Positions 2 through 22,772 of a DNA stretch of 26,893 nucleotides are shown here, in pieces. The notes under the pieces are model-generated. The model made no database searches. It was not told where the DNA came from and worked only from the letters and a program-made list of their open reading frames with translations. A program made the translations under genes and the position numbers. The stretch spans positions 1-26,893 of the forward strand of contig JAJDDH010000166.1 in NCBI GenBank assembly GCA_029260415.1, written 5' to 3'. The number at the start of each line of letters is the position of its first letter. The first letter of the stretch is position 1. Origin of the DNA: Phycisphaerales bacterium (GTDB lineage: Bacteria > Planctomycetota > Phycisphaerae > Phycisphaerales > UBA1924).

Positions 2-724
2 GCCGATCGTGCCCGCCACGTGCGTGCCGTGCCCGTCGACAGGGTCGTCGGGATTACTGTCTCCGTCGTAGAAGTCCCAGCCCCGCGTGTCGTCGATGTA
101 GCCGTTGCCGTCGTCGTCAACCCCGTTGCCGGGGATCTCACCGTTGTTCGACCAGATGTTGTCATCAAGATCGGGGTGTGACCACTGCACGCCGGAATCG
201 ATCACAGCAATCACGAAGCTCGCGTCACCGGTAAACGTATCCCAAGCCTCGGCGGCGTCGATATCAACGTCGAACACCCCGTTGACCCCGCGGATGTTCT
301 GGCCCGTGTTGTCGGCGCCCCACTGCAGGTAGAAGTACGTGTCGTTGGGGGTCGCCTCGTGCCTGACGACGTAATCCGGCTCAGCGAACTCGACAAACGG
401 GAGCTGACGCATCAGATCGACCGCCTGATCAACCGGCAGCGTCGTGGCGAGATGCAGCGTGCCCCGGTCGTCGAGCGGGCGGATGACACGAGCCGAAACT
501 GCACGCATCGCCATCACGCCAAGGTCCGCGTCGCGGAACTTGACAATCATCTGCCCCGGCGCGTGCACCAGCCCGGCATCGTCCATCAGTAACTGCTTGG
601 CAAGCCGAATCTCGGCGTCGGCGACGGCGGGCGCCATCTGGTTCATCTGACCCAAACTCGGCGCCGTAAGCCCTGCGAGCAGCGCGGCGGTGACACCCAT
701 CCGATCTCGACGGAAAGCCATCAT
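2..724 (-). CDS. Secreted S8 family serine peptidase (subtilase), N-terminal part; truncated by the left window edge
   Basis: Not in the ORF track; translated by hand. ATG at 724 follows GGAAGGAG. It has a signal-like segment (GVTAALLAGLTAPSLG), a prodomain ending FVEFAEPDY, TPNDTYFYLQWG, the catalytic Asp motif VIAVIDSG, GNGVDDDGNGYIDDTRGWDF and the catalytic His motif GHGTHVAGTIG at the edge. The Ser motif lies outside the window. Confidence 0.93.
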   Translation of the reverse strand, partial: MMAFRRDRMGVTAALLAGLTAPSLGQMNQMAPAVADAEIRLAKQLLMDDAGLVHAPGQMIVKFRDADLGVMAMRAVSARVIRPLDDRGTLHLATTLPVDQAVDLMRQLPFVEFAEPDYVVRHEATPNDTYFYLQWGADNTGQNIRGVNGVFDVDIDAAEAWDTFTGDASFVIAVIDSGVQWSHPDLDDNIWSNNGEIPGNGVDDDGNGYIDDTRGWDFYDGDSNPDDPVDGHGTHVAGTIG

Positions 725-1065
725 TCAGAATCTCCTTCCATGTGCGATCCGCGCTCGCCAAGAGTTTGGCCGGGAGACACCCCGCGGAACACAGATCGCC
801 GAGTGTAACGCGCCTGCCACAAAGCGCTGAGCGGATACTGTCCGAATTCAGCGCCCGCTCGCGCGTGCCCAGCTCGCGAACCCGGATTCTGGGCGTCTGG
901 GGAACTTCTCCAGCAAACGCCGCCGGGGTCGTTCGGTCAGGCCCGCGAACGGAGCCGTGTTTGTCGTCGTGCTACTCTGATCCAGGACAGGCTGCGCAGC
1001 GGCGCCCGGACCGTGGGGTTGGTCCGCTCCGGTTTCTGCGCCCGGCAATCACGGCCGGTCCGAGC

Positions 1066-2697
1066 TCAGCGATCGGGCCCCGCGAACCGGACGCCCGCCA
1101 GATCGGCCACCTCCCGCTTCCAGCTCGTCAGGTCCGAGGGCGTAAAGCCCGAGAGCGAGTCGTGCCCGCACGCGCGCGCCATGACGCTCATGAGCGAGGC
1201 CGACGCCCAGAAGAACCGGTCCAGGCGCTTGGCGGACTCATCGACGATCAGGCGGGCCCGCAGGTGTTCCTTCTGGGTCGCGATGCCGACGGGGCAGTTG
1301 TTCGAGTTGCAGGCGCGCATGCCCAGGCAGCCGATCGCCTGGATCGCGGCGTTGGAGACCGCGACCGCGTCGGCGCCCAGGGCCATCGCCTTGACGAAGT
1401 CCGCCGGCGTGCGCAGCCCACCCGTCACCACCAGCGTGGTGTCCGGGCTCACGCGGTCGATGTGCCTGCGTGCCCGGGCGAGCGCGGGGATCGTGGGCAC
1501 GGAGATGTTGTCGCGGAAGATCAGCGGCGCCGCCCCGGTGCCCCCGCCCCGACCGTCGAGGATGATGTACTCCGCCGACGCCTCGAGGGCGAAGTCGATG
1601 TCCGCCTCGATGTGCTGGGCGCTGAGCTTGAACCCGACGGGGATGCCGCCCGTGGCCTCGCGGACCTCGTCGGCGACGCGTCTGAAGTCCGCGGGAGTGT
1701 GCAGGTCCTTGAAGGTCGCGGGGCTGATGGCGGGCGTGCCGGGTTCGATGCCGCGCACGCGGGCGATGGTGATGTCGACCTTCTCGCCGGGCAGGTGCCC
1801 GCCGGTGCCCGTCTTGGCGCCCTGGCCCCCCTTGAAGTGGAACGCCTGGCACCGAGCGACCTTGTCCATGCTGAACCCGAACTTGGCCGACGCGAGCTCA
1901 TAGAAGTACCGGCTGTTGGCGGCCTGCTCCCGGGGGAGCATGCCCCCCTCGCCCGAGCAGATGCCCGTGCCCGCCAGTTCCGCGCCGATCGCCAGCGCGG
2001 TCTTCGCCTCGCTCGACAGCGCCCCAAAGCTCATGTCGCTGACCAGCAGCGGGATCACGAGCGTCAGCGGCTTGGCGGCCCGCGCCCCGATCGTGACCTG
2101 CGTTGCAACGGGGTGATCGTCGAGCAGCGGCTTGGTCGCCATCTGCGCGGTGAGGATCTGCAGCTCGTCCCACGTGGGCAGGTCCTGGCGGGGCACGCCC
2201 ATCGCGTCCGAGGGCCCGTGATGCCCGAACTTCTCGAGCCCGTGCTTGGCGAGGTTCTGGATCAGACCAACGTGCGGCTCCTCCGGGGTGCCGTGCACGT
2301 CCGCGTACGCGCCCAGGTACTCGTCGCGGTTGTATGGCTGCGGGTTGGCGTCCTCCCATTCCCGGATCTCGTCGGCGTCCACGACGACGGACCTCACGCC
2401 CCCGTGATCCTCGATCCAGGCGTTGAACCGGTGCAGCGCCTCTTCGTTGTTGTACTCGGAGACGCCCGTGTCCAGGCGGTAGTCCCAGCCGTGGACGCCG
2501 CAGATCAGGTTGTCCCCATCGACGTGCCCGTCGCCCATCAGCGCGCCCCGGTGCAGACAGCGCCCGTACAGCACGGAGACGCGGTCCTCGCCGTCCCGCT
2601 CGAACCGCGTGACAACGAGGTCTACATTGGCAACGAGGGCGTGAACCGGGCGGTCGCGGTCCAACTCCTCCCACCGGGCCACCGGGGTCTTGTTCAT
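1066..2697 (-). CDS. FMN-binding glutamate synthase-family protein with N-terminal Rieske [2Fe-2S] domain (543 aa)
   Basis: Rieske ligands CLH...CGVH. GltS FMN-barrel motifs MSFGALS, SGEGG, KGGQGAKTGTGGHLPGEKV, DGRGGGTGAA and GGLRTPADFVKAMALGADAV. Cys cluster C-x5-C-x4-C (CLGMRACNSNNCP). Start moved to ATG 2697, which has an AGGAG Shine-Dalgarno. Confidence 0.9.
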   Translation of the reverse strand: MNKTPVARWEELDRDRPVHALVANVDLVVTRFERDGEDRVSVLYGRCLHRGALMGDGHVDGDNLICGVHGWDYRLDTGVSEYNNEEALHRFNAWIEDHGGVRSVVVDADEIREWEDANPQPYNRDEYLGAYADVHGTPEEPHVGLIQNLAKHGLEKFGHHGPSDAMGVPRQDLPTWDELQILTAQMATKPLLDDHPVATQVTIGARAAKPLTLVIPLLVSDMSFGALSSEAKTALAIGAELAGTGICSGEGGMLPREQAANSRYFYELASAKFGFSMDKVARCQAFHFKGGQGAKTGTGGHLPGEKVDITIARVRGIEPGTPAISPATFKDLHTPADFRRVADEVREATGGIPVGFKLSAQHIEADIDFALEASAEYIILDGRGGGTGAAPLIFRDNISVPTIPALARARRHIDRVSPDTTLVVTGGLRTPADFVKAMALGADAVAVSNAAIQAIGCLGMRACNSNNCPVGIATQKEHLRARLIVDESAKRLDRFFWASASLMSVMARACGHDSLSGFTPSDLTSWKREVADLAGVRFAGPDR

Positions 2698-3061
2698 CGC
2701 AAGGTCTCCTGCACTCGGGCGCCAAATCGCCTGACGGGGCGACATTCACCGATGCTCGCAGGCTACTGCAAACCGGCGGGCACGCCTTGCGCTCCCGGGG
2801 ACTTTCCGTGTTCCTGCGGGCGCCGACTGGAGCGGACCCCCGATGGCGGCGGTCCCGGCGGTCCGCCGCGCCGAGCCCGGGGCCCGCATGTGGGGGCCTC
2901 CTTCCCAGCACGCAGGTCCGGTGAATGTGCGCCGGTTGTGCGGCCTGGACCGTCTGTGCATGACGCCCCGGCGCCCGCGGCGTCGCCTTCTCGGGCTGCG
3001 GTGGCGGCCCGCACCCCCCGCTCCGATACCACCGGGGATTCTCTTGTCCGGGGGTTCTTTG

Positions 3062-4405
3062 ATGGATATTCAGACCTACGAACTCGTGCTGCTCGGGGGC
3101 GCCCTCTCGGTGCTTGCCCTGCTGCTCCCCTGGAAGAAGCGACGCGCGCCGATCCCATGGACGGCGGTCAGCGTCAGCGGGATGGGCGTGATCGTCCTCG
3201 TTCTGCACGCGATGCGCCAGACCATCGCCAAGTTTGCGTCGGAGCCCGGGTCCTGGCTCGACCCCATGGCGGCCCAGTGGTCCACCTGGCGACTGGTGGA
3301 ACTGGGCGGCATCGTGATCGTGGGCGTGGGCGTCGTCCTGCTCGCACAAACGGCCGAGCACGAGCGGGCCGACGCGAGCCGCAGGCGCCAGCTCGACGCA
3401 CTCGCGCCCAATATCGATATCTCTGCCCCGCTGCTCAAGGCGCTGATCCAGACGGCCCAGGGCACCATGCTCCTGCTGACCAACCGGGCGGGCGCCAGCG
3501 AGCAGCCCCGCTTTCATGTCGCGTTCGTCGATGAATCCGGCGCGGGCGGGCAGGGTCGGCGCTTCGGCGCGGGACGCAAGCTGCTGACCGAGATCTACAC
3601 GCCCTCGCTGGCCGAGGGCATCTACACCGCCGCCCACCGCGCCCTGACGACCAACAGCGTCGCCGAGTCCGAGTGCCAGTGCGCCGAGTCCGAGCGTTCG
3701 TACAAGTTCTCCGCCGCGGCACACGGGCAGTCCGTCATCGTCATGCTCGAAGACATCTCCGAGCGCCGCAAGGCCGAGGAGTCGCTCCGGCGCGTCGCGT
3801 ACACCGACCCGGTCACCGGGCTGGCCAACCGCCCGATGCTCGAGAAGGCGCTCGAGTCGGCCATCGGCACGAGCCGCAACGAGACCGGCGACCGCTTCGC
3901 CGTGATCTACGTCGACTTTGACGGGTTCAAAAGCGTTAACGACATGCACGGGCACCACGTGGGCGATGCGCTGCTGGCGAGCATCGGCTCGCGCATCGCC
4001 GAGCTGCTGGGCGCCTTCGAGGGGCGATCGGCCGACGAGAACGTCGCGGCCCGATGGGGCGGCGACGAGTTCGTCATCCTGCTGGGCGAGTCACGCGTCA
4101 GCGAGGTGGACGCCTTCGCCCAGCGTCTTCTCGAGCTCCTCGGCCAGCCCCACCACATCGAGGGCGTCGAGGTCACCTCCACCGCCAGCATCGGCGTCGG
4201 CGTCCGCCGCGGGCAGTACGAGACCCATATGGCCGTCGTCCGCGACGCGGACTCCGCGATGAACGAGGCCACGCGCCTCGGGCGCAACCGCGTCATCAAG
4301 GGCGGGGAGAGCGCCGACACGTCAGGGCTGCAAGCGCGCAGGCGCGAGGACTGGCAGGACGACACCGCCGCTCCATCCGACGGGGCAGAGCGACAGGCGG
4401 GGTAA
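3062..4405 (+). CDS. Membrane-anchored diguanylate cyclase (about 3 N-terminal TM helices, degenerate PAS-like region, GGDEF domain, no EAL)
   Basis: Motifs YTDPVTGLANR, YVDFDGFKSVNDMHGHHVGD, ARWGGDEF and TASIGV, with a PAC-like EDISERRKAEE linker and three hydrophobic N-terminal segments. Start placed at MDIQTY (ATG 3062) because the upstream in-frame extension looks non-coding; the start is less certain than the call. Confidence 0.88.
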   Translation: MDIQTYELVLLGGALSVLALLLPWKKRRAPIPWTAVSVSGMGVIVLVLHAMRQTIAKFASEPGSWLDPMAAQWSTWRLVELGGIVIVGVGVVLLAQTAEHERADASRRRQLDALAPNIDISAPLLKALIQTAQGTMLLLTNRAGASEQPRFHVAFVDESGAGGQGRRFGAGRKLLTEIYTPSLAEGIYTAAHRALTTNSVAESECQCAESERSYKFSAAAHGQSVIVMLEDISERRKAEESLRRVAYTDPVTGLANRPMLEKALESAIGTSRNETGDRFAVIYVDFDGFKSVNDMHGHHVGDALLASIGSRIAELLGAFEGRSADENVAARWGGDEFVILLGESRVSEVDAFAQRLLELLGQPHHIEGVEVTSTASIGVGVRRGQYETHMAVVRDADSAMNEATRLGRNRVIKGGESADTSGLQARRREDWQDDTAAPSDGAERQAG

Positions 4406-4411
4406 CGAGCG

Positions 4412-6541
4412 ATGGGGGCACAACTGAAGGACCAGGCCAACGGTGGCATGCCCGCGCACGCGGGGCTGAGCGAGGCGCTCCAGCGCGCCTGGTCCGCGTT
4501 CCAGATCTACGGCGACGATCACCCCTCGTTCGCCTCCGCCGCGGCGGACGTCGTGCACGCTGGGGAGGCGATCGACGACACCCAGCGACACCTCCTGCTG
4601 GATCCCGAGTCCCCCGAGCACGGGGGCGGGTGCAAGGACTCGCTCGCCCATGCCCTTTCCGCGCTGGACATCGGAGCCGTGCAACTCGGCGCTGGGCTCG
4701 ACGCCTCCACCCTGGCCCTCGCGTTCTCAGAGATCCGCGCCGCCCGGGGCGCTGGAGTGAAGGGAGCGGGGCTGGCCGAGAGGGTGAGCGCCTGCTGCAA
4801 CACCGCCGTCAAGCTCGTCCCGCTGAACTACGCGCGCCTCACGGAGCACGTCACGGGCGTCAGGCCCAACCCGCGCGCCGACCGCACCACGCGCCTCGGT
4901 GTTGGCGAGCTGCGCTCCGTGCTGTTGGGCGCCACAAGCCAGGGCGGGCAACGCGACGCCGCGGCGTGGATCGGGCGTGCGATCAGCCAGGGCGGGGCAG
5001 ACGCCCAGTGCGTCTCCCAGAGCCTGCAGGAAGCCATCCGAGAGGCCCGGCGCACGGGCGGTGAGGCCTCCGATGACATCGGGCACATCCGCGGCGTGCT
5101 CGCCTCGCTCAGCCCGGAGATCCGCGCCGGACTCATCCAAGATCAGCAGGGCCCGGATCTCGATGCGATCTCCGAGCTCGCGGGCGTCATCCCCGTGATG
5201 GAGACGTGCGAGGCCCTCGCCAACGCCCAGCTCTCGCCAGACAGCATCTGCCACTCCACGCTGATGATGTTCCAACGCCTCGCGACGCTCTCGGCCGGGC
5301 GCGCCGCGGAACTCGGCCGGGTCGAGTCGCTCGCGGCGCTCGTCGTGGACGAGAGCGACGATTCACAGGAGGCCCGCGCCCTGCAGTCGCTCCGCAATCT
5401 CTGCCACGAAGCGCGGCGCGAGGAGTTCACGCCCAAGGAGTACCTCGAACGCCTGCACGAGATCAGCGCCGGGCAGATCGGCGTCGACGCCTCGGCCCCT
5501 GACTTCGAGTGGGAGTCAGACGCCCAGGAGCGTGTCCATGCCGCGGAGATCATCCTCGAGCTGATCGACGCGAACATTGGCGCTGAGCACCTCCGCGCCG
5601 GTCACCTCCGGGCCCTGGCCGGCGCCGTGCGCCACATCGCCTCGCTCGGACGCCCGGACCTGCTCAACCGCGTCGCGGACGCCTGCGCGTCGTACGCCCA
5701 CCACCCGGATGACACCATCCGCGACGAGTGGTCGCAGCTCCAGGTGACGCTCGAGGACGATTCGACCCGGGCGATCGCGCTGTCCTCGGCCACCTCGGAG
5801 GACCTCTTTGAGTCCGGAGCCCAGCGCCTCGCCCAGCAGGGCGAGCGCGAGCTGATCCGCGTGCTGCTCACCGCGCACGCGCTCGGGCCGGGCGCCGCCG
5901 CGGCCCCCTGGATCGCCGACCGCCTCGCGAGCACTGGCCCCGCGCTCGGCGCTGAGATCGGCGCCATGCTCGAATCCAGCCCCGAGATGATCGAGGTGCT
6001 GCTGTCACTCATCAACGGCCTGGACCCCGACGCGGCCTTCGAAGCGATCCAGCCCGCGCTGCTCAACCACAAGGACGACGAGGCCCGACGGCGCGCGTAC
6101 GCCGCGGCGTACACCCTGAGGCACCCCTGGCCGCGCGACCTGTGCCACGCGGCCGTCGTCGAGCCCGACGACCGCATCCGCGCCCTTGGCGTCGCGTACA
6201 TCCTGCGCCGCTCACCCGTCGACCGGACGCCGCTGCTGACCGAGCGACTGCTGCACGCGCTGGGCGGGCCCGCGCCGACGTCTCAGGACCGCGCCATGAT
6301 CATCGACTCGCTCGCCCGCGCGGACTCGGACGCGGCAAGGCAGGCGTTGACCCACGCGCTCATGGGCGCCTCGTGGAGGGCGTCCGGGACCAGCCCGGGG
6401 CTGGGCCGCGCACTGGCGCGGGGGGTGCGATCGAACCGGGCGGGTTCAGCCTCCAGCCTCGCGCTGCTGCTCTGGAGCATCAGCCCCAACCGCCTCATCG
6501 CGTCCGTCAGGAAGGTGAAGGGGGCCCCCGATGTCGGTTGA
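4412..6541 (+). CDS. Hypothetical 709-aa all-alpha protein, probably HEAT/ARM-repeat-like in its C-terminal half
   Basis: Long ORF 6 nt after the DGC stop, overlapping the HD-GYP gene by 11 nt. It has Ala/Leu-rich amphipathic helical segments (e.g. HKDDEARRRAYAAAY, EPDDRIRALGVAYIL) and an N-terminal IYGDDHP motif. The HEAT assignment is pattern inference only. Confidence 0.7.
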   Translation: MGAQLKDQANGGMPAHAGLSEALQRAWSAFQIYGDDHPSFASAAADVVHAGEAIDDTQRHLLLDPESPEHGGGCKDSLAHALSALDIGAVQLGAGLDASTLALAFSEIRAARGAGVKGAGLAERVSACCNTAVKLVPLNYARLTEHVTGVRPNPRADRTTRLGVGELRSVLLGATSQGGQRDAAAWIGRAISQGGADAQCVSQSLQEAIREARRTGGEASDDIGHIRGVLASLSPEIRAGLIQDQQGPDLDAISELAGVIPVMETCEALANAQLSPDSICHSTLMMFQRLATLSAGRAAELGRVESLAALVVDESDDSQEARALQSLRNLCHEARREEFTPKEYLERLHEISAGQIGVDASAPDFEWESDAQERVHAAEIILELIDANIGAEHLRAGHLRALAGAVRHIASLGRPDLLNRVADACASYAHHPDDTIRDEWSQLQVTLEDDSTRAIALSSATSEDLFESGAQRLAQQGERELIRVLLTAHALGPGAAAAPWIADRLASTGPALGAEIGAMLESSPEMIEVLLSLINGLDPDAAFEAIQPALLNHKDDEARRRAYAAAYTLRHPWPRDLCHAAVVEPDDRIRALGVAYILRRSPVDRTPLLTERLLHALGGPAPTSQDRAMIIDSLARADSDAARQALTHALMGASWRASGTSPGLGRALARGVRSNRAGSASSLALLLWSISPNRLIASVRKVKGAPDVG

Positions 6542-7670
6542 CTCGATCGACAGCGCGCTCGTCGCGATCAACGCCGCGGTCGCCTGCCGCCGTCTCTACG
6601 GCGACGGTCACCCGGCCATCGACATGCACGCGCGACGCGCCGCCGAATCACTCAACGCCCTCGCGAAGGAGGCCTCCCCGCGCAGGATCGTCTTCCTTGA
6701 GGGCAGGGTCGTCTGCGACGGCGCTAGTCTGCCGTCGGGCAAGACACTGTGCGAGGGCGCTTTCGCACGCCTGGGCAGCGGTCTGCCCGACTGTCTCGAG
6801 CTGCGCGACGGCATCGGGATCGGCGCGGTCCAGAGCCTGATGTCCACCCTCGTCAGCGGCAGCCCCCTGGACGCCGGCAAGGCCCTCACGCTCTGCTGGG
6901 TGGACCAGGAGACCGACGCCTACACGCTCGGCCAGGGCCCGATCACCATCGATGACCCCGCCTTCCTCTCCCACGAGCTGCGGGGCCTGTGGGACCGGAC
7001 CGCGATCGAGGGGCAGGCCCCGGTCAAGAGCATCGAGGCGCTCGCGGGCGACGTCGTCGCCGCGGTTTCCGCCGGCTCGGCGACCGTCCTGCCCATGGCG
7101 AACCTGAAAGACCACGACGAGTACACCTACGTCCACGCGATCAACGTCGGGGTGATGGCCTCCGCCCTCGCCCGCGCCGTGGGCCTCTCGCAGGACCGGG
7201 TCTTCGACATCACCTGCGCCGCGCTGCTGCACGACGTGGGCAAGAGCGCCATCTCGCTCGAGATCATCAACAAGACGGGCAAGCTCGACGACCACGAGCG
7301 GGCGCGGATGAACGATCACCCCGCGGAGGGCGCCGCGATCCTCGCCGCGTCCCCGGGCCTCGCGCCGGTCGCCGTCAGCGTCGCGTACGAGCACCACATG
7401 AAGCTTGACGGCGGGGGCTACCCCAAGACCCCCAAGGGCTGGAAGGTGTCGCTCGCCAGCCAGGTGGTTCACATCGCCGACGTGTTCGACGCCCTCCGCA
7501 CGCACCGCCCGTACCGCAAGGCGATGCCGATGCACAAAGCGATCGCGATCCTCGAGCAAGACTCCGGCGTCGGCTACGACGCGGAGCTCTACCGCGTGTT
7601 TGTGGAGCACGTGCTGGAGTTCACGCCCAACACGAGCGACGAGCACACGCCCGAATCTCACGCGGCCTGA
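6531..7670 (+). CDS. HD-GYP domain c-di-GMP phosphodiesterase
   Basis: Motifs DEYTYVHAINV, ALLHDVGK, HPAEGA, YEHHMKLDGGGYP and IADVFDALRTHRPYRKAM; GAAGGGGG SD-like sequence before ATG 6531. Confidence 0.93.
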   Translation: MSVDSIDSALVAINAAVACRRLYGDGHPAIDMHARRAAESLNALAKEASPRRIVFLEGRVVCDGASLPSGKTLCEGAFARLGSGLPDCLELRDGIGIGAVQSLMSTLVSGSPLDAGKALTLCWVDQETDAYTLGQGPITIDDPAFLSHELRGLWDRTAIEGQAPVKSIEALAGDVVAAVSAGSATVLPMANLKDHDEYTYVHAINVGVMASALARAVGLSQDRVFDITCAALLHDVGKSAISLEIINKTGKLDDHERARMNDHPAEGAAILAASPGLAPVAVSVAYEHHMKLDGGGYPKTPKGWKVSLASQVVHIADVFDALRTHRPYRKAMPMHKAIAILEQDSGVGYDAELYRVFVEHVLEFTPNTSDEHTPESHAA

Positions 7671-7752: not shown

Positions 7753-7923
7753 TTACGGGCAGCCGGCGCCGAACGACGTCAGGAACGCGAGCACATCGGA
7801 GAAATCGACCGTCCGGAAGGGCGGGGCGATGTCACAGATCAGATCACCCTCGCTGAACGCGGTCAGGAAGCCGATCACGTCGGTGAAGTTGAGCACGCGG
7901 TTGCCGTCGTAGTCCGCCGGGCA
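7753..7923 (-). repeat. GC-type dockerin-like C-terminal domain, copy 1 (two EF-hand-like repeats)
   Basis: CPADYDGNRVLNFTDVIGFLTAFSEGDLICDIAPPFRTVDFSDVLAFLTSFGAGCP-stop; homologous to the tails at 10150-10320 and 12560-12733. Confidence 0.85.
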
Positions 7924-9897
7924 GCTGACCTGACCCGAGAAGTACCGGCGAGACGTGCCCCACGCGTCCTGCGCGACCTCCACACCCATGTGACGACCCG
8001 GCAGGTCATCCGCGGGCGGGTGGATGCCACCCCAGATGCGCGAGAGTGACGTCTGGTCCGACGCGTCGCGGTAGGTCGCCCACTGCAGCGTGATGTTCTG
8101 GCTCGGGCCCTCCTCGAAGATGAGGAACTCGTTCTGCGGGCAGAAGAACTCGCCCACGCCGCCCGGGAAGAACTCGCTGCCCGTCATCCAGGTCATGAGC
8201 TCCGAGGCGCCCCGCGAGAACGTCGAGTGCCCCGAGACGTAGCCCGCGAACGGGGGCGTCACGAACGTCGGGCGCTGGTAGGGCCACCACTCTTCGATCA
8301 GGATCCAGTCCACGCCCGCTTCGTCGATCTCCGGATCGACGATGTAGTCCGGGCCGCGCCAGGCCTTGACGACGATCTTGCCCTCGTTGCCCGCCAGGTG
8401 CTCGTGGCGCTCGCCGGGCGCGGTGGTCGTCGAAGTGCACACCTCGATCAGCCCCGGGTACAGCGCGATGCCGTCGGGGTCAAAGCTCGCCTGGCCCATG
8501 TCGGAACTCTGTCCCTGGTCGCCCATGTAGCGGATGGCGCTGATCGGACGCAGGTAGTCGTACCAGCCCTTGCAGCCCCAGGCAGTCACCGCGACGTCGT
8601 GCATCATGCCGCCGAGCATCAGGTACGCCTTCACGTCCCACTCGAGATCGGGGAGGATCGGGCCCTCGCCGCCGAATCGCTTCTCGAACAGCGGGTGGTC
8701 GTTGACGTAGTTGAGGATCGAGAACCAGTGCCCGGGAGGGGTCTCGGAGGCGGGGCCGTCGGCCCAGAACTCCGCGAGGATGCGGGCGTAGTCGCCGCGC
8801 GGCACGATCTGCGCCGGGTAGGGCGCCATGGTCACCGGGTTCATCGCCCAGCCCATGCCAGAGTCGCCGCCGTTGACGAAGTCGTAGTACGTCGCCCAGT
8901 CGTTGACGCCCGGCAGCGGGCTGTTGCCGAAGCTGGCGGGTGAGATGTCGATCATGACCCCGTCGCTCGGGTCCAGATGGCTCGACCACGAGACGACCAT
9001 CTCGTTGCCCCAGCGGTAGTAGTCGTCGCCCACCCCGTTGAAGAACGGGGGGTCGCCCGGGTCGTGGTAGACGGGGTACGGGTCGCCGCCCCGTGAGTAG
9101 TTGATTTTGTCCTCGTCATGCAGCGCGAAGCCCGCGACCTGTCCCCACTCGGGGCCGAGGAACTCGAGCGAGCCCAGCGGGATCGGGATGTCGTTCTGGT
9201 CCAGGAAGAACTCGATCGCCAGAGGCTGCCAGCGGTTCACGTCCGAGATGTCCGGGTTGCCCGGGAAGTCGGGGAACAGCGGCAGGTTCACGGCCTCGTA
9301 GAACAGGTTGTCGTAGTCGTTCGCTTCGTTGGCGCCGTCCGTCAGCCCGAACAGGATGACCGACGCGCCGATCCGGTTGCCCAGCGCCGCGGGCGTGTCG
9401 CCGATCGTCGTCGTCACCATCGGGTCGTACCCGAGCGATGCCATCTGCGCCTCGACCATCGGGAGGATCGCCGCCGCGCCCACCGAGGGCGTGAACCGCT
9501 GCACCAGGACCCGGTACATCGCGTAGCTGATCGCCTCGTTGCGGGCCGCCTCGACATCGACCGCGGTCTGGCGCTCGCTGTGGAAGACCTGGTCCGCCAC
9601 GTCGTCGTACGCCGCCCACGCGTCCCACATCGCCGCCGACGTGTGGTACAGGTTCCGCGCGTGAACCGTCGGGCGGGCCTTGTCGTTGCGGATCGCCTCA
9701 AGAAGCACGTCGTTCCACTGGCGCGCGACCGAGTGCACGCCCCGCGGCGTCGCGGGCGTCACGCTGCCGTCGGCGTGGTGGGTGCGGTAGATGAACCCGG
9801 CCTCCTGGGCGCTGGCGGGCGTGGCCGCCACCCCCGAGAGCCCCAACGCGATCAGGCCGGCCGCGGCGATCGCCCCTGTGTGCTGTGTACCCGTCAT
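7753..9897 (-). CDS. Secreted vanadium-dependent haloperoxidase/PAP2-superfamily protein, paralogue 1, with C-terminal GC-type dockerin-like domain
   Basis: Signal peptide (AIAAAGLIALGLSGVAATPASA-QE). All three vanadate/phosphate-binding motifs are present: K-x6-RP (KGWYDYLRP), PPFAGYVSGH and SRIWGGIH. Also AEFWADGP, and the protein ends in GAGCP. Confidence 0.85.
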   Translation of the reverse strand: MTGTQHTGAIAAAGLIALGLSGVAATPASAQEAGFIYRTHHADGSVTPATPRGVHSVARQWNDVLLEAIRNDKARPTVHARNLYHTSAAMWDAWAAYDDVADQVFHSERQTAVDVEAARNEAISYAMYRVLVQRFTPSVGAAAILPMVEAQMASLGYDPMVTTTIGDTPAALGNRIGASVILFGLTDGANEANDYDNLFYEAVNLPLFPDFPGNPDISDVNRWQPLAIEFFLDQNDIPIPLGSLEFLGPEWGQVAGFALHDEDKINYSRGGDPYPVYHDPGDPPFFNGVGDDYYRWGNEMVVSWSSHLDPSDGVMIDISPASFGNSPLPGVNDWATYYDFVNGGDSGMGWAMNPVTMAPYPAQIVPRGDYARILAEFWADGPASETPPGHWFSILNYVNDHPLFEKRFGGEGPILPDLEWDVKAYLMLGGMMHDVAVTAWGCKGWYDYLRPISAIRYMGDQGQSSDMGQASFDPDGIALYPGLIEVCTSTTTAPGERHEHLAGNEGKIVVKAWRGPDYIVDPEIDEAGVDWILIEEWWPYQRPTFVTPPFAGYVSGHSTFSRGASELMTWMTGSEFFPGGVGEFFCPQNEFLIFEEGPSQNITLQWATYRDASDQTSLSRIWGGIHPPADDLPGRHMGVEVAQDAWGTSRRYFSGQVSCPADYDGNRVLNFTDVIGFLTAFSEGDLICDIAPPFRTVDFSDVLAFLTSFGAGCP

Positions 9898-10149: not shown

Positions 10150-10320
10150 TTAGGGGCAGCCCTCGCCGAACGCCTCGAGGAAGGCGATCAGGTCGGTGAA
10201 GTTGACGACACGGAACGGCGGGGCGATGTCACAGATCAGGTCCTGCTCCCCGAACGCCGTGATGAACGCGAGCACGTCCGTGAAGTTCAGGATGCGATCG
10301 CCCGAGTAGTCCGCCGGGCA
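10150..10320 (-). repeat. GC-type dockerin-like C-terminal domain, copy 2
   Basis: CPADYSGDRILNFTDVLAFITAFGEQDLICDIAPPFRVVNFTDLIAFLEAFGEGCP-stop. Confidence 0.85.
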
Positions 10321-12348
10321 GGAGATCTGCCCGCTGAAGTACCGACGCCCCTGCGCCATCGCGTCGGGCGCCAGCTTTGTACCGATGTGACGCCCGGGCA
10401 GATCGTCGGCAGGCGGGTGGATCCCGCCCCAGATCCGCGACTGCGAGCACTCGTCGGACGCGTCGATGTACTTGGCCCACTGCAGCTCACAGTCCACGCT
10501 GGGCCCGTCCTCGAACACGAGGAACTCGTTGGCCGGCGCCTCGAACACGCCCATCCCGCCCGGGAAGTACTCCGAGCCCGTCAGCATGGACAGCAGCTCC
10601 GCGGCGCACCGCGAGTACGTCGAGTGCCCGGAGTAGTACCCCGGGAATGGGGGCGAAACGAACGACGGACGCTGGTAGGGCCACCAGTTCTCCGCCAGGA
10701 TCCAGCCCGTGCCCGCGACATCGACGTCCGGGTCCACGATGAAGTCCGGGCCGCGCCACGCCTTGATCGCGATGCTGCCCTCGCTGCCCGCCAGATGCTC
10801 GTGCTTCTGGCCCGCGGCCGTGGTCTCAGCGGTCACGACCTCGATGAAATCAGGGACCAGGTTCACGCCCAGCGGGTTGTAGCTGGGCATCTCCGGGTCC
10901 GAGCACTGCCCGCGATCAGCCATGTACCGGATGGCGCTGATCGGGCGGACGAAGTCGTACCAGCCCTTGGCGCCCCAGCAGGCGATCGCCGTGTCGTGCA
11001 TCGCGCCGCCCAGCAGCAGGTAGGACTTCACGTCCCACTCGAGCTGGTCCAGCTCGGGGCCCTCGCCCATGAACTGGCGGTTCGAGAGCGGGTGGTCGTT
11101 GACGTAGTTGAGGAGCGTGAACCAGTGCCCGGGGGGCGTCTCGGAGGCGGGGCCGTCAGCCCAGAACTCCGCGAGGATGCGCCCGTAGTCGCCGCGCGGG
11201 ACGATCTGGGGCTCGTAGGGCAGGCCCGTGACCGGGTTGACGTCGTAGCCCATGCTGACCGAGCCGCCGTTGACGCGGTCGTAGTACGTCTCCCAGCTAT
11301 CAACCGGGGGAGGGGCGCCATAGTCGCCGATCGACGCGGGGGAGATGTCCCACATCACGCCGTCGGCCGGGTCGAGAAGGGCCGACCACATGGTCACCAT
11401 CTCAAAGCCCCACTTGTAATATTCCTGCGTCTGGATGTCGCCCATCTGCGGGGGCGGTCCGGGGTCGTGGTACACCGGGTAGTCGAACCCACCGCGGGAG
11501 TAGACCGTCGCGTCCTCCTCGTGCAGCGAGAAGCCTTCGACGATGCCCCACTCCGGGCTCAGCGCGTTGAGCGAACCGAACGGCACCGGGTTGCCCGACT
11601 GATCGACAAAGAAGTCGATCGCCAGAGGCTGCCAGCGGTTGCAGTCGATGATCTCCGGGTTGCCCGGGAGGATCACGATCAGCGGCTCGTTGATCGGCTC
11701 GTAATACTCGTTCCCGTAGTTGTTCGCCTCGTTGGAGCCGTCGGCTTGCCCGTACGCGATGATCGACGCCGCGATCCGGTTGCCCAGCGCCGCGGGCGTG
11801 TCGCCCACGGTGGTATCGATGTTCTTGTCGTAGCCCAGCTCGAGCATCAGCGCGTCCAGGTCGGGCATGATCTCCGGCGCCCCGGGCGACGCCTGGAAGC
11901 GGTACCGCATCAGGCGGTACATCGCGTAGCTGATCGCCTCGGCACGGGCCGCGTCCACGTCCACCGCCGTCTGCTTCTCCTGATGCAGGACCTGGTCCTC
12001 GGGGCCGTTGCCGTAGGCCACCCACGCGTCCCACATCGCGGCGCCGCTGTGGTACAGGTTCCGCGCGTGCACCGTCGGGCGGGAGTTGTCACGCCGGATG
12101 GCGAACAGCAGCTCCTCGTTCCAGGTCCGCGCGATCGAGTGTGACTCCTCGCCGCGCCCGGGGACTTCTTCCCACGTGGCGTCGGGGCGCTGCACCTTGA
12201 ATACGTACCGCCCCGGGCGGTGAATCTTCCCGCTCGCCGCGCCGTCCATGATTACCTGAGCCTGGGCCCCGTCGCCCGCGCTCAGCACGACGGCCAACGC
12301 ACCGATCGCCCCGAGCTTCACCATGTTCCGGTTGTGTGTCATCGCCAC
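10150..12348 (-). CDS. Secreted vanadium-dependent haloperoxidase/PAP2-superfamily protein, paralogue 2, with C-terminal GC-type dockerin-like domain
   Basis: Motifs KGWYDFVRP, PPFPGYYSGH, SRIWGGIH and AEFWADGPASETPPGHW; signal peptide (LGAIGALAVVLSAGDGAQA-QV); collinear with paralogue 1. The start is either GTG 12348 or ATG 12342. Confidence 0.85.
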   Translation of the reverse strand: MAMTHNRNMVKLGAIGALAVVLSAGDGAQAQVIMDGAASGKIHRPGRYVFKVQRPDATWEEVPGRGEESHSIARTWNEELLFAIRRDNSRPTVHARNLYHSGAAMWDAWVAYGNGPEDQVLHQEKQTAVDVDAARAEAISYAMYRLMRYRFQASPGAPEIMPDLDALMLELGYDKNIDTTVGDTPAALGNRIAASIIAYGQADGSNEANNYGNEYYEPINEPLIVILPGNPEIIDCNRWQPLAIDFFVDQSGNPVPFGSLNALSPEWGIVEGFSLHEEDATVYSRGGFDYPVYHDPGPPPQMGDIQTQEYYKWGFEMVTMWSALLDPADGVMWDISPASIGDYGAPPPVDSWETYYDRVNGGSVSMGYDVNPVTGLPYEPQIVPRGDYGRILAEFWADGPASETPPGHWFTLLNYVNDHPLSNRQFMGEGPELDQLEWDVKSYLLLGGAMHDTAIACWGAKGWYDFVRPISAIRYMADRGQCSDPEMPSYNPLGVNLVPDFIEVVTAETTAAGQKHEHLAGSEGSIAIKAWRGPDFIVDPDVDVAGTGWILAENWWPYQRPSFVSPPFPGYYSGHSTYSRCAAELLSMLTGSEYFPGGMGVFEAPANEFLVFEDGPSVDCELQWAKYIDASDECSQSRIWGGIHPPADDLPGRHIGTKLAPDAMAQGRRYFSGQISCPADYSGDRILNFTDVLAFITAFGEQDLICDIAPPFRVVNFTDLIAFLEAFGEGCP

Positions 12349-15895: not shown

Positions 15896-16957
15896 TCAGC
15901 GCGCGATCCGCATGATCTGAACCCGGTCCGTCGCCCGCCCGGGCCCGACCATCCCGCCCACCACCATCCATCGCCCGTCCCCGATCGGGACCAGCCCCCG
16001 GTGGTCCATGCTCGCCGTCACGCCCACGGGCAGCGCTCCAACGCGAACCCCGCCCGATCCGGCGTCAACCACCAGCAGCTGCTCCAGCGGCGCGCACGCC
16101 TCCCCGTTGTACCCCGTCCCGCTGATGTTGTACGCCGTGTCGCTCCCGCCCAGCGCGAGGATGGCGCCGTCGTTGGCGCCCGTTGTCGAGCACGCCGCCC
16201 GGTAGGTCGCACGCCCCTCGTGCGCGTCGCGTTGTTCCCATACGATCCGGGTCGGGTCCGCCGGGTTGATCCTGCCAACCTGGACCGCCGAGGACATCTC
16301 GAACCCGTCCTTGCCCCGCGCGACCCCGTCCATGACGACGATCGTCTCGCCCGAGACCCCGCCGCTGTGCCCGAAGAGCGGTCGCCCGGGCAGGGGCGTC
16401 GCGCTCGCCCACACATCGCGCCGCGTGTCGTACAGCTGCACGTCACTGACGTTGTCGTTGCTGGGCCCGTGCCACCCGCTGATCAGCACGATGTACCGGT
16501 CGGCGTACACACCCGCGAGCGTGTCATCGACCTCGACGGGAACGCTCGCCAGCTCGGCATACGCGTCCGCGTCCGGGTCGTACCGAAGCAGCCGCTTCTC
16601 CGTCACCTCGTGCCCGTCGTCGAGCACGCTGTACCCGCCGAGGAGGTAGACCCTTCCCGCGACCGTCACGGCGCTGGCCCCGATCCGCGCCCGCCCGCCG
16701 TCCAGCGGGGCGTCGCCGATGCGTATCCAGGCGCGCGTCCCCGAGTCCAGGCGGAACGACGCGGGGGTGATCGTCTGCGGGTCGGTCGGGTCCGTGATGC
16801 CCATGAAGCAGTACACGCTCCAGGCGCCGTCGGGGTGGATGACCGACGTCACGGCGTTGTTGGTAATGGGTATGGGCAGGTCGGGCGCGTGCGCCGCGCA
16901 CCCCGCCTGGAAGGCGAGCACGAGGCTGAGCACCGCAAAAAGGGCGGGTCGGAGCAT
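15896..16957 (-). CDS. Kelch-repeat (beta-propeller) exported protein, possible lipoprotein
   Basis: Kelch-like units (RIGASAVTVAGRVYLLGGY, YIVLISGW...VQLYDTRRDVW, LFGHSGG, ILALGG, WMVVGG); signal peptide ending in QAGC (imperfect lipobox). Confidence 0.75.
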   Translation of the reverse strand: MLRPALFAVLSLVLAFQAGCAAHAPDLPIPITNNAVTSVIHPDGAWSVYCFMGITDPTDPQTITPASFRLDSGTRAWIRIGDAPLDGGRARIGASAVTVAGRVYLLGGYSVLDDGHEVTEKRLLRYDPDADAYAELASVPVEVDDTLAGVYADRYIVLISGWHGPSNDNVSDVQLYDTRRDVWASATPLPGRPLFGHSGGVSGETIVVMDGVARGKDGFEMSSAVQVGRINPADPTRIVWEQRDAHEGRATYRAACSTTGANDGAILALGGSDTAYNISGTGYNGEACAPLEQLLVVDAGSGGVRVGALPVGVTASMDHRGLVPIGDGRWMVVGGMVGPGRATDRVQIMRIAR

Positions 16958-18948: not shown

Positions 18949-21045
18949 TTAAGGTGCCGTTCCCAGACTCATCAGCCACACCCGCAGCGTCTCGGCGACG
19001 CTCCACGCCTGCGCCGGGCACCCGTCCGGCTCGCGCGGCGCGTCGGGCGCATCGTCCCCATCAAAGATCTCCGGCAGCTGACCGGGCGACCAGCCCGCGT
19101 CCAGCCACGCGATCAGCGGGCGCAGCGCGTCGCCCGCTTCCGCCCTTGACGCCCCGCTGAACCCGTCCACCCGCATCACCGCCTCGGCGTACGGGCCCAG
19201 CAGCCAGGGCCAGACCGTCCCGTTGTGGTACGCCGCGTCGCGCGCCATCAGGTCGCCCTCGTAGCGCCCCCGGTACTCGGGGTCGTCCGGGTCGAGCGTG
19301 CGCAGGCCCACAGGCGTGAGCAAGCGCTCACGAACGACCCGAACCACGTCGCGACGCTGGGTCGCGCTCAGCGGCGAGTGCGGCAGGCTGGCCGCAAAAA
19401 TCTGGTTCGAGCGCACGCTCTCGTCGGGCGCCCACCCGCCCGCCTGCCCGGGCGTGAGATGATCGACCAGCCCGGATCTAATGCGCACAAACATCGCGTT
19501 GAACGACTCGCCCGCACGCGCCGAGAGCGCCAGAAGTCGATCGCTCGCGGCGCTGTCCGATTCACGCAGCGCCTCGCCCAGCGACACCAGCGCGTTGTAC
19601 CACAGCGCGTTGATCTCCACGGCTTTCCCGTGCCTGGGTGTGAACGTGATCCCGCCCCGCTGCGCGTCCATCCACGTCAGCTGCGTCGTCTCGTTGCCCG
19701 CCGCGATCAGCCCGTCGCCCGGGTCCATCCCGATCTCGTAGTCCGTGCCCCGCTTGTAGGACGCGATCACGTCCAGGCACGCGGGGACCAGCCCGTCAAA
19801 GCCCGCCCGGTCGCCCGACGTCCGCAGGTACTCGCAGCACGCGTGCACAAACCAGAGCGACGCGTCCACCGTGTTGTAGTGGTTGTCGCCCGCGTAATCG
19901 TCGAAGCGGTTGGGGATCAGCCCGTTGCGCCGCGCGCCCGCGAACGTCCGCAGCACGCCCAGTGCCTCGTCGAACCGGTCGGTGACCAGCAGCAGCCCGG
20001 GCAGCGAGATCATCGCGTCGCGCCCCCAGTCGCTGAACCACGGGTACCCCGCGATCACGCTCACGCCCTCGCCCGCGCCGCCGCGCTGCACGACGAACTG
20101 ATCGCCCGCGACGACCAGACGCGCGAGCGTGCGTCGATCGCCCTTGCCCAAGTTCTCCGGCGCCCTGGCGCTGGCCGCCCGCACCAGCGCCGCCAGCCGC
20201 TCCGCCTGCGCCACGCGGTCCGCATCGATGGTGGGCAGCTCCAGCGCGTCGTTCGACGCCCAGAGCGTGATCGTCCGCCCCGCCCGCCCGTCGCCCGCCG
20301 CGTGGGCGATGCCCGGGCAGTACAGGTCCTCCCGGTCCTCCAGCCCTCGCTTGCGCTCCCAGGCGTACAGCACGTCCCGCCAGCGCTCGGGCCCGTGCGC
20401 AAACCGCGCGCCCTCACCCCAGAGCTGGACGCCCCGCTCGCCAGCGTGCGCCACAACCCGCCCGTCGCTGACGCGCGACCGGAACCGCCCGTCGAACGCG
20501 CTCGGGTCGATGACCTGGTGGAAGCCGCGCAGCGCCAGCAGCGGGCGCAGCTCGACGCGCCACGCGACGCCCTCGCCCCCGATCGTGTACCGGATCGCGC
20601 ACGCGTTGCGTCGCTCGAACAGGTGCAGCGACTTGGTGATGTCCACGCTCCGCCCGTCCGCGAGATCCACACGGTACGTCCACGCGCAGCCCGCGCCCAC
20701 CTCGAAGCCCACGAGCTCGGGCAGGTCCTCGGACCGGTCCCCGCCGGTCGTGAAGTGCAAGGGGGTCAGGCAGACGCGCCGCTCGCTGGGGCCGCCCTCG
20801 TTGAGAATCAACGTCTCGTGGACCTGCGTGAGCCCGACCGCCCGCTCGACCGGCGGGCGCTCGGCGCTGACGAGCAGCCCGTGGTACCGCCTCGTGGGCG
20901 TGCCCAGCACGCTGCCCATCGCGTACCCGCCCAGGGCGTTGGTCAGCGTCCACTCCTTCCAGAGCGGCGGGGGGGCACAGCGCAGCTGAGCGCCCGAGAG
21001 TGTCAGGGGCGCGAGGGTCTCGTTTGATCGGGCGACGGCGTCCAT
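18949..21045 (-). CDS. Amylo-alpha-1,6-glucosidase (glycogen debranching enzyme, GDE N-terminal plus catalytic domain)
   Basis: Motifs EWTLTNALGGYAMG, TRRYHGLL, IAGYPWFSDWGRDAMISLPGL, LTWMDA, TPRHGKAVEINALWYNAL, YHNGTVWPWLLG and EIFDGD...GCPAQAWSVAE. Confidence 0.93.
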   Translation of the reverse strand: MDAVARSNETLAPLTLSGAQLRCAPPPLWKEWTLTNALGGYAMGSVLGTPTRRYHGLLVSAERPPVERAVGLTQVHETLILNEGGPSERRVCLTPLHFTTGGDRSEDLPELVGFEVGAGCAWTYRVDLADGRSVDITKSLHLFERRNACAIRYTIGGEGVAWRVELRPLLALRGFHQVIDPSAFDGRFRSRVSDGRVVAHAGERGVQLWGEGARFAHGPERWRDVLYAWERKRGLEDREDLYCPGIAHAAGDGRAGRTITLWASNDALELPTIDADRVAQAERLAALVRAASARAPENLGKGDRRTLARLVVAGDQFVVQRGGAGEGVSVIAGYPWFSDWGRDAMISLPGLLLVTDRFDEALGVLRTFAGARRNGLIPNRFDDYAGDNHYNTVDASLWFVHACCEYLRTSGDRAGFDGLVPACLDVIASYKRGTDYEIGMDPGDGLIAAGNETTQLTWMDAQRGGITFTPRHGKAVEINALWYNALVSLGEALRESDSAASDRLLALSARAGESFNAMFVRIRSGLVDHLTPGQAGGWAPDESVRSNQIFAASLPHSPLSATQRRDVVRVVRERLLTPVGLRTLDPDDPEYRGRYEGDLMARDAAYHNGTVWPWLLGPYAEAVMRVDGFSGASRAEAGDALRPLIAWLDAGWSPGQLPEIFDGDDAPDAPREPDGCPAQAWSVAETLRVWLMSLGTAP

Positions 21046-21146: not shown

Positions 21147-22772
21147 ATGGCGACCCTCCCAACCTCATCTGACAGCCAGGCCAACCCCGGCCCGAGTGCA
21201 GCCCAGAGCCGCGCGCCCGGGACCCGGGCGGACACCAGCGCGCCCCCCCAGCCCACCATCCCGGACCCCAAAATCGTCTCCGATGGGATCACCTTCGACG
21301 ACGTGCTGCTCATCCCCGCGCGCTCGGGCGTCATGCCCAGCGACGCGGACACCTCCACGCGCCTGACCAGTACCATCCGCATCAACATCCCGCTGATCTC
21401 CGCGCCGATGGACACCGTGACCGAGTCCGCCATCGCCATCGCCCTGGCCCAGGAGGGCGGCATCGGGATCATCCACAAAAACCTCTCCATCGACGCCCAG
21501 GCCCGAGAGGTCGCCAAGGTCAAACGCTCGGCCAACGGCGTCATCACCGACCCCGTCACCCTCGGGCCCGACGACACCGTCGCCCGCGCCCACGAGCTCA
21601 TGGCCCAGCACAACGTCTCGGGCTTCCCCATCACCGACGACGGCGCCTCCGTCCTCCGCTCCAAGGGCAGGGTCCTGGGCATCCTCACCCGGCGCGACCT
21701 CAAGTTCGTCGGCTCCGAGTCCACCCCCATCCGCGACATCATGACCGCCTCGGGCCTGATCATCGCCCCGCCCGACACCTCGCTGCAGCAGGCCGAGGAG
21801 ATCCTCAGCCGCAACAAGGTCGAGAAGCTCCTGCTCGTCGATGACGCGGGCGCCCTGGCGGGCCTGATCACCATGCGCGACATCGAGCGCGCCAGCCGCT
21901 TCCCGCGCGCGTGCACCGAGTCACGCGGGCGCCTGCGCTGCGGCGCCGCGATCGGCCCGGGGCAGTTCGACCGCCTCGAGGCCCTGCTGGCCGCGGAGGT
22001 CGATGTCATCACCGTCGACACCGCCCACGGGCACTCCGAGAACGTCATCGAGACCGTCCGCAAGATCAAGGCGAGCTACGCGATCGACGTCATCGCGGGC
22101 AACATCGCGACGGCCCAGGCCGCCCAGGACCTGATCGAGGCGGGCGCCGACGCGGTCAAGGTCGGCATCGGGCCCGGCTCGATCTGCACGACCCGCGTCG
22201 TCACGGGCGTGGGCATGCCGCAGATCACCGCCATCATGAACGCGGTCGAGGGCGTGCGCCGCTCGGGTCGCGACGTGCCCGTGATCGCCGACGGCGGGGT
22301 CCGCCTCTCGGGCGACATCGCCAAGGCCCTGGCCGCGGGCGCCGACTCGGTGATGATGGGCTCGCTGTTCGCCGGGCTCGACGAGTCCCCGGGCGAGATG
22401 GTCATCTCGGGCGGGCGGCGTTTCAAGGCCTATCGCGGCATGGGCTCCGAGGGCGCGATGAACGCGGGCAGCGCCGACCGCTACCGCCAGGCGGACAAGC
22501 TGGGCTCCGACGGCAAGGCCGTCGTGAAGTTCGTTCCCGAGGGCGTCGAGGGGCTGGTGCCCTACCGGGGCTCGCTCGCGGAGTTCGCCTACCAGCTCGT
22601 CGGGGGCCTGCGGGCCGCGATGGGCTACTGCGGCTGCCCGACCATCGACCGCTTCCGCGCCGAAGCCCGCTTCACCCGCGTCAGCGGCGCCACGATGGTC
22701 GAGAACCACCCCCACGACATCCGCATCACCAAGGAATCGCCCAACTACACTTGGGAGCACCCGGGCGACTGA
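21147..22772 (+). CDS. guaB: Inosine-5'-monophosphate dehydrogenase with tandem CBS subdomain
   Basis: Motifs [37 protein letters not shown], catalytic [31 protein letters not shown] and [12 protein letters not shown]. Confidence 0.97.

Follow-up and report, generated by a model that had tools for sequence, protein, structure and literature searches.

HD-GYP proteins are the less understood class of cyclic di-GMP (c-di-GMP) phosphodiesterases, and the locus described here raises the question of why such an enzyme begins in the same way as the helical-repeat protein encoded directly upstream of it. The locus lies on contig JAJDDH010000166.1 (assembly GCA_029260415.1) of a Phycisphaerales bacterium, which was analysed over its 26,893 nucleotides and is hereafter referred to as the window. 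The window holds a compact c-di-GMP operon (Table 1), made up of a membrane GGDEF diguanylate cyclase (P0003), a protein with a HEAT-like alpha-solenoid (gene X, product P0001) and an HD-GYP phosphodiesterase (P0002). The initial annotation had noted that P0001 and P0002 both start with a helix-YGDxHP-helix stretch and had taken their N-termini for paralogous copies of an undescribed domain. We recovered this stretch in both proteins (YGDDHP at residues 33-38 of P0001, within the peptide 23-47, and YGDGHP at residues 23-28 of P0002, within the peptide 13-37), and our analyses support the proposed paralogy: the two N-termini are copies of a homologous alpha/beta domain of ~100-110 residues, hereafter named NT, which is without a match in Pfam, NCBIfam and the PDB. 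The same annotation described the rest of the two proteins as unrelated; this is correct only past residue ~115-140, since up to that point they have a whole domain in common, well beyond the six-residue word.

The case for NT as a real domain common to both proteins is built on profile alignment, on specificity within the genome and on hidden Markov models (HMMs) from which the window's clade was left out. An hhalign comparison of shallow profiles, drawn from the close families of X and of the HD-GYP protein, aligned 44 columns (P 1.6e-4). With a 38-sequence alignment of the ~700-aa family (A6) set against an alignment of HD-GYP N-termini (A4), the match spanned 100 columns (probability 95.9%, E 5.9e-9) and paired residues 17-112 of P0001 with residues 7-111 of P0002. 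A search of the window's own genome with A6 returned exactly two matches, X (3.7e-50) and the HD-GYP protein (4.6e-8). For the leave-out HMMs, other clades supplied 17 domains of the X type or 17 of the HD type; the X-type model matched P0002 at residues 10-105 (14-109 of its frame, E 3.9e-7) and the HD-type model matched P0001 (E 5e-4), with no further match for these models among the 234 frames of the window. Each of the two models also matched all the NT domains tested. An exhaustive HMM search with the N-terminus of X yielded two classes of proteins: ~32 full-length but distant relatives of 630-740 aa, with one match each covering profile positions 8-160, and proteins with TPR_10/TPR_12 repeats, matched 4-18 times each and over the helix-turn-helix stretch only (~positions 16-67).

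Both window proteins contain the succession of elements by which we define NT, namely, at the N-terminus, a helix, an [LIV]-Y-x3-H-[PA] turn, a second helix and then a small sheet with two helices. The motif is conserved among orthologues: across 65 NT domains from 40 loci, the tyrosine is present in 64, the histidine in 58 and the proline in 33. The paired HD-type domains have the tyrosine in 22/22 and the histidine in 20/22 cases, and both residues are invariant in the 38 NT-HEAT relatives. In the close family of X (six homologues), Y33, D36 and H37 are invariant, and the five close homologues of the HD-GYP N-terminus retain L-Y-G-x-x-H-P, with Y23, G24 and P28 invariant and H27 present in 5/6 close orthologues. 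Family-wide, only the motif Tyr and His are conserved; the G and D of YGDxHP are lineage-specific details, and the family motif is better written as [LIV]-Y-x3-H-[PA]. The 18/19 nucleotide identity between positions 4506-4524 and 6595-6613, also reported in the initial annotation, was reproduced; taken alone, it is at chance level. Elsewhere in the window we found three unrelated pairs of 19-mers with <=1 mismatch, apart from 19 within the haloperoxidase-like paralogues described below. The identity arises because the encoded residues are identical and the codon bias towards GC is strong (the GC content of the window is 69%), and the DNA flanking the match is dissimilar. A BLASTP comparison of P0001 with P0002 was likewise insignificant (7/19 identities, E 0.23), and the significance of the NT kinship comes from the profiles.

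Structures were predicted with AlphaFold2 for residues 1-190 of P0002, with a 31-row alignment, and for full-length X, with a 7-row alignment. The NT model of P0002 consists of a helix (2-23), the YGDGHP turn, a helix (28-47), a hairpin (strands 51-56 and 59-62), a helix (70-80), a strand (88-91), a helix (97-109) and a strand (119-122), with a predicted local distance difference test (pLDDT) value >90 over residues 1-115. That of X consists of a helix (12-33), the turn, a helix (38-52), a strand (60-62), a helix (78-84), a strand (87-92), two helices (98-114 and 119-129) and a strand (133-137); pLDDT is 80-92 in this region and averages 72.8 over the full length. The helices on either side of the motif agree with the helix-motif-helix reading that had been proposed for both proteins, and in the two predicted models helices and strands succeed one another alike. 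In the window's clade, X has a ten-column deletion at the beta-hairpin (A6 columns 73-82), leaving most of the hairpin missing.

Scans of both N-termini against Pfam and NCBIfam found no family, and sequence searches of the PDB with the A4 and A6 profiles returned nothing meaningful. With the NT model, the best Foldseek match in the PDB had an E value of 1.5, and VIA-align found no chain with Z >=6 among 48,161 PDB representatives. In the AlphaFold DB, the NT model matched 21 clusters at E <0.01, named HD, HD-GYP, HEAT, GGDEF, cNMP-binding, PAS or uncharacterised, and in the ESM Atlas it matched clusters with HD_5, HEAT_2 or PilZ at template modelling (TM) scores of 0.58-0.65. The Atlas fold matches came from Omnitrophota, Gemmatimonadota, Acidobacteriota, Fibrobacterota, Actinomycetota, Thermodesulfobacteriota and Methylomirabilota, and they are consistent with a spread of NT over many phyla. 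An Atlas feature search with residues 1-190 of P0002 gave only clusters without a name at 0.90-0.92; DUF3391 scored 0.81, inside the noise range. A protein search with the profile of the full-length X family (A8) added just three NT-bearing relatives, together with generic HEAT proteins, and so provided no sequence-level evidence for NT in other phyla; the distribution of the domain is given here by sequence in Planctomycetota only and by fold in other phyla.

The partner domains listed for HD-GYP proteins are REC, GAF, DUF3391, DUF3369 and four membrane domains, and most HD-GYP proteins have N-termini without a recognised domain (Galperin and Chou, 10.1101/2021.11.05.467447). P0002 resembles PmGH (GAF-HD-GYP, 4MCW), RpfG (REC-HD-GYP) and Bd1817/PA4108 (DUF3391-HD-GYP) in having an N-terminal domain of ~120-190 aa, a helical linker and an HD-GYP domain in which the metal and GYP residues are preserved, but its N-terminal domain differs from theirs, with no Pfam match and no GAF or REC fold match. 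The window is also unlike the surveyed HD-GYP systems in encoding a separate upstream HEAT-like protein with a paralogous N-terminal domain, an arrangement that is not in the survey (10.1101/2021.11.05.467447). Nor did we find an account of such a pair in the open-access papers searched, where HD-GYP proteins or c-di-GMP were considered together with HEAT repeats, as was PmGH; a Leptospira study of 2026 that deals with the N-termini of HD-GYP proteins treats DUF3391-like domains, which are other than NT. An assignment of NT to the GAF family was rejected, as the best GAF fold match was 3CIT (E 1.5, probability 0.03) and Pfam GAF gave none.

DUF3391 (PF11871; Bd1817 family, PDB 3TM8) likewise precedes HD-GYP, is about as large and is followed by long helices that connect it to the catalytic domain. 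However, its topology comprises four strands followed by two helices (10.1101/2021.11.05.467447), whereas in the predicted models of NT the two long helices come before the strands. PF11871 did not match residues 1-180 of P0001 or 1-190 of P0002 at E 10, and 29/31 HD-type segments were also without a match; the two weak matches (E 0.0086 and 0.2) covered profile positions 93-135 only, within the last 40 of the profile, and fell on the linker helix that follows the core of NT. 3TM8 was not among the 50 PDB rows listed by Foldseek, and a genome search with PF11871 gave no match in 151 genomes, with the controls likewise silent. Since the core is unmatched and the helices come first, we rejected DUF3391 as an identity for NT. 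In NT, the [LY]-G-x-x-H-P turn with the helices on either side of it also resembles the turn between successive TPR_10/TPR_12 (kinesin-light-chain-type) repeats, but NT has one hairpin and then a small sheet. Pfam TPR models did not match P0001 or P0002 even at E 10, the likeness being seen only in the reverse search, and we read it as a common structural turn and not as family membership. Because of this resemblance to the G-x-x-H-P inter-helix turn, the motif Tyr and His probably have a structural role.

A maximum-likelihood tree of 22 X/HD pairs (110 core columns) clustered the NT domains by type, with 2 changes of type against 15 with shuffled labels (0/500 shuffles as low). X and HD copies from one locus were never sisters, both halves of the tree had the same tip clades, and the X and HD distance matrices were correlated (Mantel r 0.81, 0/5000 permutations as high). 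Mean NT identity between X and HD was 19.2% within loci and 17.7% between loci, and the NT cores of the window are 21% identical. The X and HD copies are ancient paralogues inherited together, since the types cluster and same-locus copies are ~19% identical, which indicates that the paralogy is old and has been maintained. Two other accounts of the likeness can be set against this one. It might be due to chance, or to a common helix-turn-helix capping motif such as that of TPR_10/12, without common ancestry; the chance-level DNA match, the BLASTP result and the matches of TPR_10/12 proteins to the motif region fit this account, but the profile alignment reaches well past the turn, the leave-out HMMs are reciprocal and specific, the order of strands and helices after the hairpin agrees and the Pfam TPR models miss both proteins, and we consider it very improbable. 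If the neighbouring genes had recently undergone duplication or gene conversion, this would account for the 18/19 identity, but such an event is next to impossible to reconcile with dissimilar flanks, with cores as diverged as those of the window and with same-locus copies that are no closer than copies from different loci and are never sisters in the tree.

P0002 belongs to HD_5 (PF13487; E 5.8e-30, with 104.7 bits where the curated cut-off is 27.2), and its relatives in the PDB are 5Z7C and PmGH 4MCW (E 1e-31 to 1e-32). Both the HD and GYP motifs and the His/Asp ligands were found: residues H202, H234-D235, K248/G250, H263, H288-H289, G296-Y297-P298, D317 and R326 are identical to those of PmGH (HD, HH, GYP, KxG and RPY), and we take the His/Asp residues aligned with PmGH to be metal ligands, as in the structure of that protein. 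The position of PmGH E185 is occupied by Y198 in P0002 (the numbering offset was checked on K235/G237) and not by a glutamate, a residue that goes with a third metal and pGpG hydrolysis and marks a subclass and not the HD-GYP family as a whole. HD-GYP enzymes without this glutamate, for example with a tyrosine, are unable to hydrolyse pGpG to GMP, although exceptions exist (10.1101/2021.11.05.467447). Judged from the residues aligned with PmGH, P0002 looks like an active phosphodiesterase; with a tyrosine at the E185 position, its metal site is probably binuclear and its end product pGpG.

Gene X has six close homologues (46-63% identity), and its distant relative P0023 could be aligned over 524 columns (98.4% probability). 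No Pfam or NCBIfam family was found for X. In the predicted model, a disordered linker separates NT from the solenoid, for which the best Foldseek matches in the PDB were SF3b155, AP2, beta-catenin and CAND1, none with an E value below 2.5e-3 (TM ~0.2 for SF3b155/AP2). The A8 profile retrieved many HEAT_2/HEAT proteins (E 1e-10 to 1e-25) and relatives of X reach HEAT_2 with E 2e-15; P0001 itself did not reach the Pfam HEAT models (PF13646/PF02985), its HEAT_2 match having an E value of 0.32 and 11.7 bits, where the cut-off is 27.7. As modelled, the solenoid bears a weak likeness to HEAT/ARM scaffolds (HEAT_2, PF13646), being all-helical and having relatives that pass HEAT_2, but X differs from them in that P0001 falls under the Pfam threshold, carries NT and has conserved blocks of its own. 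No c-di-GMP-binding motif and no PilZ domain were found in P0001 by the Pfam and library scans. A second word of similar type, Y-x-L-R-H-P, is present within the solenoid at residues 567-572 of P0001 (window ~6110-6127), inside a highly conserved block of the close family, YTLRHPWPRDLCH, and at residues 540-545 of the distant relative P0030.

NT matches were obtained in 112/401 sampled Planctomycetota genomes (54/243 high-quality genomes), and many of them lie ~2 kb apart on one contig. An X-type gene immediately precedes the NT-HD or NT-HD-GYP gene in 21/40 fetched Planctomycetota loci; these pairs comprise 16 of the 18 loci chosen for two close NT hits, four 'single-hit' loci and L051. The partner in L051 is diverged, such that Pfam sees HD only and the HD-type HMM recovers NT; it was missed by an HD-GYP HMM from the window's clade only, which proved too narrow. 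The stop of X and the start of the HD-GYP gene overlap or abut in L001, L002, L004, L008, L009, L010 and GCA_044232415. Four distant relatives were selected by rank only, and in each of them an HD-GYP gene of ~380 aa, or its start, overlaps the stop of X or abuts it, while a GGDEF gene lies next to none of these pairs; the partner was readable in three of these loci, and in all three it begins with Y-x3-H-[PA]. Adjacent HEAT-like plus HD-GYP pairs are frequent among the relatives, but 8/13 sampled single NT-HEAT genes have no adjacent HD-GYP gene. The pair is common in Planctomycetota and not universal. In two loci, a Ser/Thr kinase of ~420 aa follows the NT-HEAT gene instead of an HD-GYP gene (L056:1401-2645, minus strand; L057:3023-4297, plus strand), and these kinases have a coiled N-terminus of ~150 aa without an NT match.

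NT was also found fused to other domains, in the architectures GGDEF-AAA_16(STAND)-NT-NT-HEAT, PilZ-NT-HEAT and NT-REC-SpoIIE(PP2C). Proteins of the first type, of ~1400 aa, with GGDEF, a STAND-type AAA_16, tandem NT-NT and a C-terminal HEAT region, are encoded at L037:4048-8211 (+) and L038:6580-9486 (+), with two such genes per contig. The PilZ-NT-HEAT and NT-REC-SpoIIE (PP2C phosphatase) architectures are encoded at L040:161-3337 (+), L041:1115-5677 (-) and L047:219-3230 (+). The tandem NT-NT copies scored nearly equally as HD-type and X-type, so that no 'Rosetta-stone' claim can be made on types.

In the window's clade, the X/HD-GYP pair is preceded by the cyclase. The cyclase contains a GGDEF domain with an intact GG[DE]EF motif, hydrophobic N-terminal segments and no NT motif; its likely start is M74 of the open reading frame (ORF) at 2843, giving a protein of ~447 aa, and orthologues of 447-453 aa occupy the equivalent position in L001, L002 and L004. 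Six bases separate the GGDEF gene from X. The order GGDEF-X-HD-GYP was kept in every close homologue locus looked up (3/3) whereas the upstream neighbours differ, so the three genes form a conserved unit in this clade. The nearest relatives of the window are metagenome-assembled genomes (MAGs) of Phycisphaerales, and a scan of public genomes with profile A1 gave matches only in three close Phycisphaerales MAGs.

How, then, might X and the enzyme be connected? We lean, by a little more than an even chance, towards X being a non-catalytic partner subunit of the HD-GYP phosphodiesterase that acts through NT-NT association, a binding that we infer from the evidence above. The NT domains of X and of the HD-GYP protein would associate as a pseudo-homodimer, replacing the NT-NT homodimer that an enzyme standing alone would form. 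Such an association would dock the solenoid scaffold of X onto the phosphodiesterase, and the docked X may set the activity or the location of the enzyme; in the window's clade, the assembly would sit next to the cyclase making the substrate. HD-GYP enzymes are usually dimeric, and this, with the tandem NT-NT architecture, makes NT-NT docking plausible. The NT-HEAT fusions with PilZ and with GGDEF-STAND tie NT to c-di-GMP. A complex prediction for the NT pair, made with X cut to residues 10-140 and the HD-GYP protein cut to residues 1-128, scored 0.00 without a verdict and weighs neither way. Several findings tell against X being a partner subunit. NT-HD-GYP genes also occur alone, as do the single NT-HEAT genes mentioned above, which would be typical of a sensory input domain, and NT heads other outputs (REC-PP2C). 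The hairpin missing from the window's copy of X is kept by all other NT domains, including those of its own HD-GYP partners. The structures are predictions, with just 7 rows in the alignment for P0001, and the source genome is a 2.39-Mb MAG of 61% completeness.

In the main rival explanation, NT serves as an independent sensory input domain: X and the enzyme would each bind the same small signal, every protein by its own NT and without contact between the two, and their adjacency would reflect co-regulation only. It draws on the N-terminal position of NT on varied outputs (HD-GYP, HEAT, REC-PP2C and the PilZ or GGDEF-STAND fusions), on the solitary occurrence of both gene types and on the many output domains borne by the AlphaFold DB and Atlas fold matches. 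However, conserved Tyr and His residues in a TPR-like structural turn are a thin basis for a ligand pocket, the stop/start overlap and the tip-congruent trees over distant lineages better fit stoichiometric partners, and a non-catalytic solenoid has no obvious output of its own to regulate; we therefore regard this explanation as unlikely. A bolder version of the partnership, in which NT forms an obligate heterodimer whose paired Tyr/His turns create a composite nucleotide or metabolite site, X is an allosteric pseudo-subunit switching the HD-GYP enzyme on or off and the cyclase completes a self-contained, insulated make-and-break c-di-GMP module that would be new for class II phosphodiesterases, is doubtful and put forward only tentatively. 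X could instead act downstream of the enzymes, as an effector or scaffold of the c-di-GMP pathway that is kept next to the phosphodiesterase to signal locally; NT would then be a generic oligomerisation module and not an interface specific to X and the enzyme. The PilZ-NT-HEAT and GGDEF-STAND-NT-NT-HEAT fusions, the GGDEF gene ahead of the pair in the window's clade and a solenoid that folds like protein-binding HEAT/ARM scaffolds would all suit such a role, but P0001 lacks a c-di-GMP-binding motif or PilZ, and it would be left unexplained why the enzyme keeps a diverged NT type of its own, co-inherited with X, which makes this role more improbable still.

As for the wider meaning of the locus, a previously unrecognised region at the N-terminus of HD-GYP proteins can now be named as a widespread domain; a dedicated helical-repeat protein of the same operon carries its paralogue, and the domain is linked to PilZ, GGDEF-STAND and PP2C architectures. 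If X is indeed a partner subunit and forms a complex with the enzyme, the HD-GYP class would have an unstudied accessory subunit, and this would offer a direct handle on the control of local c-di-GMP pools in Planctomycetota. The fold matches suggest that this may apply to Acidobacteriota, Gemmatimonadota, Omnitrophota and further phyla as well.

Table 1. Coordinates of the features of the c-di-GMP operon, followed by those of other genes of the window
Feature	Position	Strand	Basis
Membrane GGDEF diguanylate cyclase (P0003), gene 1 of block	3062..4405	+	Pfam GGDEF PF00990, E 2e-36
Gene X (P0001), 709 aa, NT domain and HEAT-like alpha-solenoid	4412..6541	+	Homologues, AlphaFold2 model
NT domain of X, residues ~14-137	4451..4822	+	AlphaFold2, A6 alignment, hhalign
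YGDDHP turn of X, residues 33-38, joining helices 1 and 2	4508..4525	+	Sequence
Predicted all-helical solenoid of X, residues ~164-703	4901..6520	+	AlphaFold2 secondary structure
Overlap of X stop and HD-GYP start, 11 nt	6531..6541	+	Read from sequence
NT-HD-GYP phosphodiesterase (P0002), 379 aa	6531..7670	+	Pfam HD_5, E 5.8e-30
NT domain of HD-GYP protein, residues ~1-122	6531..6896	+	AlphaFold2, leave-out HMM
YGDGHP turn of HD-GYP protein, residues 23-28	6597..6614	+	Sequence
Predicted helical linker of HD-GYP protein, residues 143-186	6957..7088	+	AlphaFold2, helices 143-160, 165-181 and 183-186
HD-GYP catalytic domain, residues 192-353	7104..7589	+	HD_5, PmGH alignment
Subtilase, cut by window start	2-724	-	Pfam
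Kelch-repeat protein	15896-16957	-	Pfam
Glycogen debranching enzyme	18949-21045	-	Pfam
IMP dehydrogenase	21147-22772	+	Pfam
Sulfotransferase	23657-24490	+	Pfam
Phytase-like esterase	25361-26464	-	Pfam

Upstream of the block, a Rieske/glutamate-synthase-like gene on the minus strand (1066-2745) appears to be the real gene of that region. Two long frames without a family were also noted, at 742-3534 (+, 930 aa) and 1898-3958 (-, 686 aa), and the translation of the 930-aa frame is rich in Arg, Gly and Pro, as is usual for off-frame ORFs in GC-rich DNA. Downstream of the block, two tandem paralogues on the minus strand, at 7753-9897 (714 aa) and 10150-12348 (732 aa), carry DUF6851 and VCPO_2nd and are vanadium haloperoxidase-like; they have in common 19 blocks of 19-48 nt with <=1 mismatch per 19-mer. 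The same gene also comes after the HD-GYP gene in L001 and L002.

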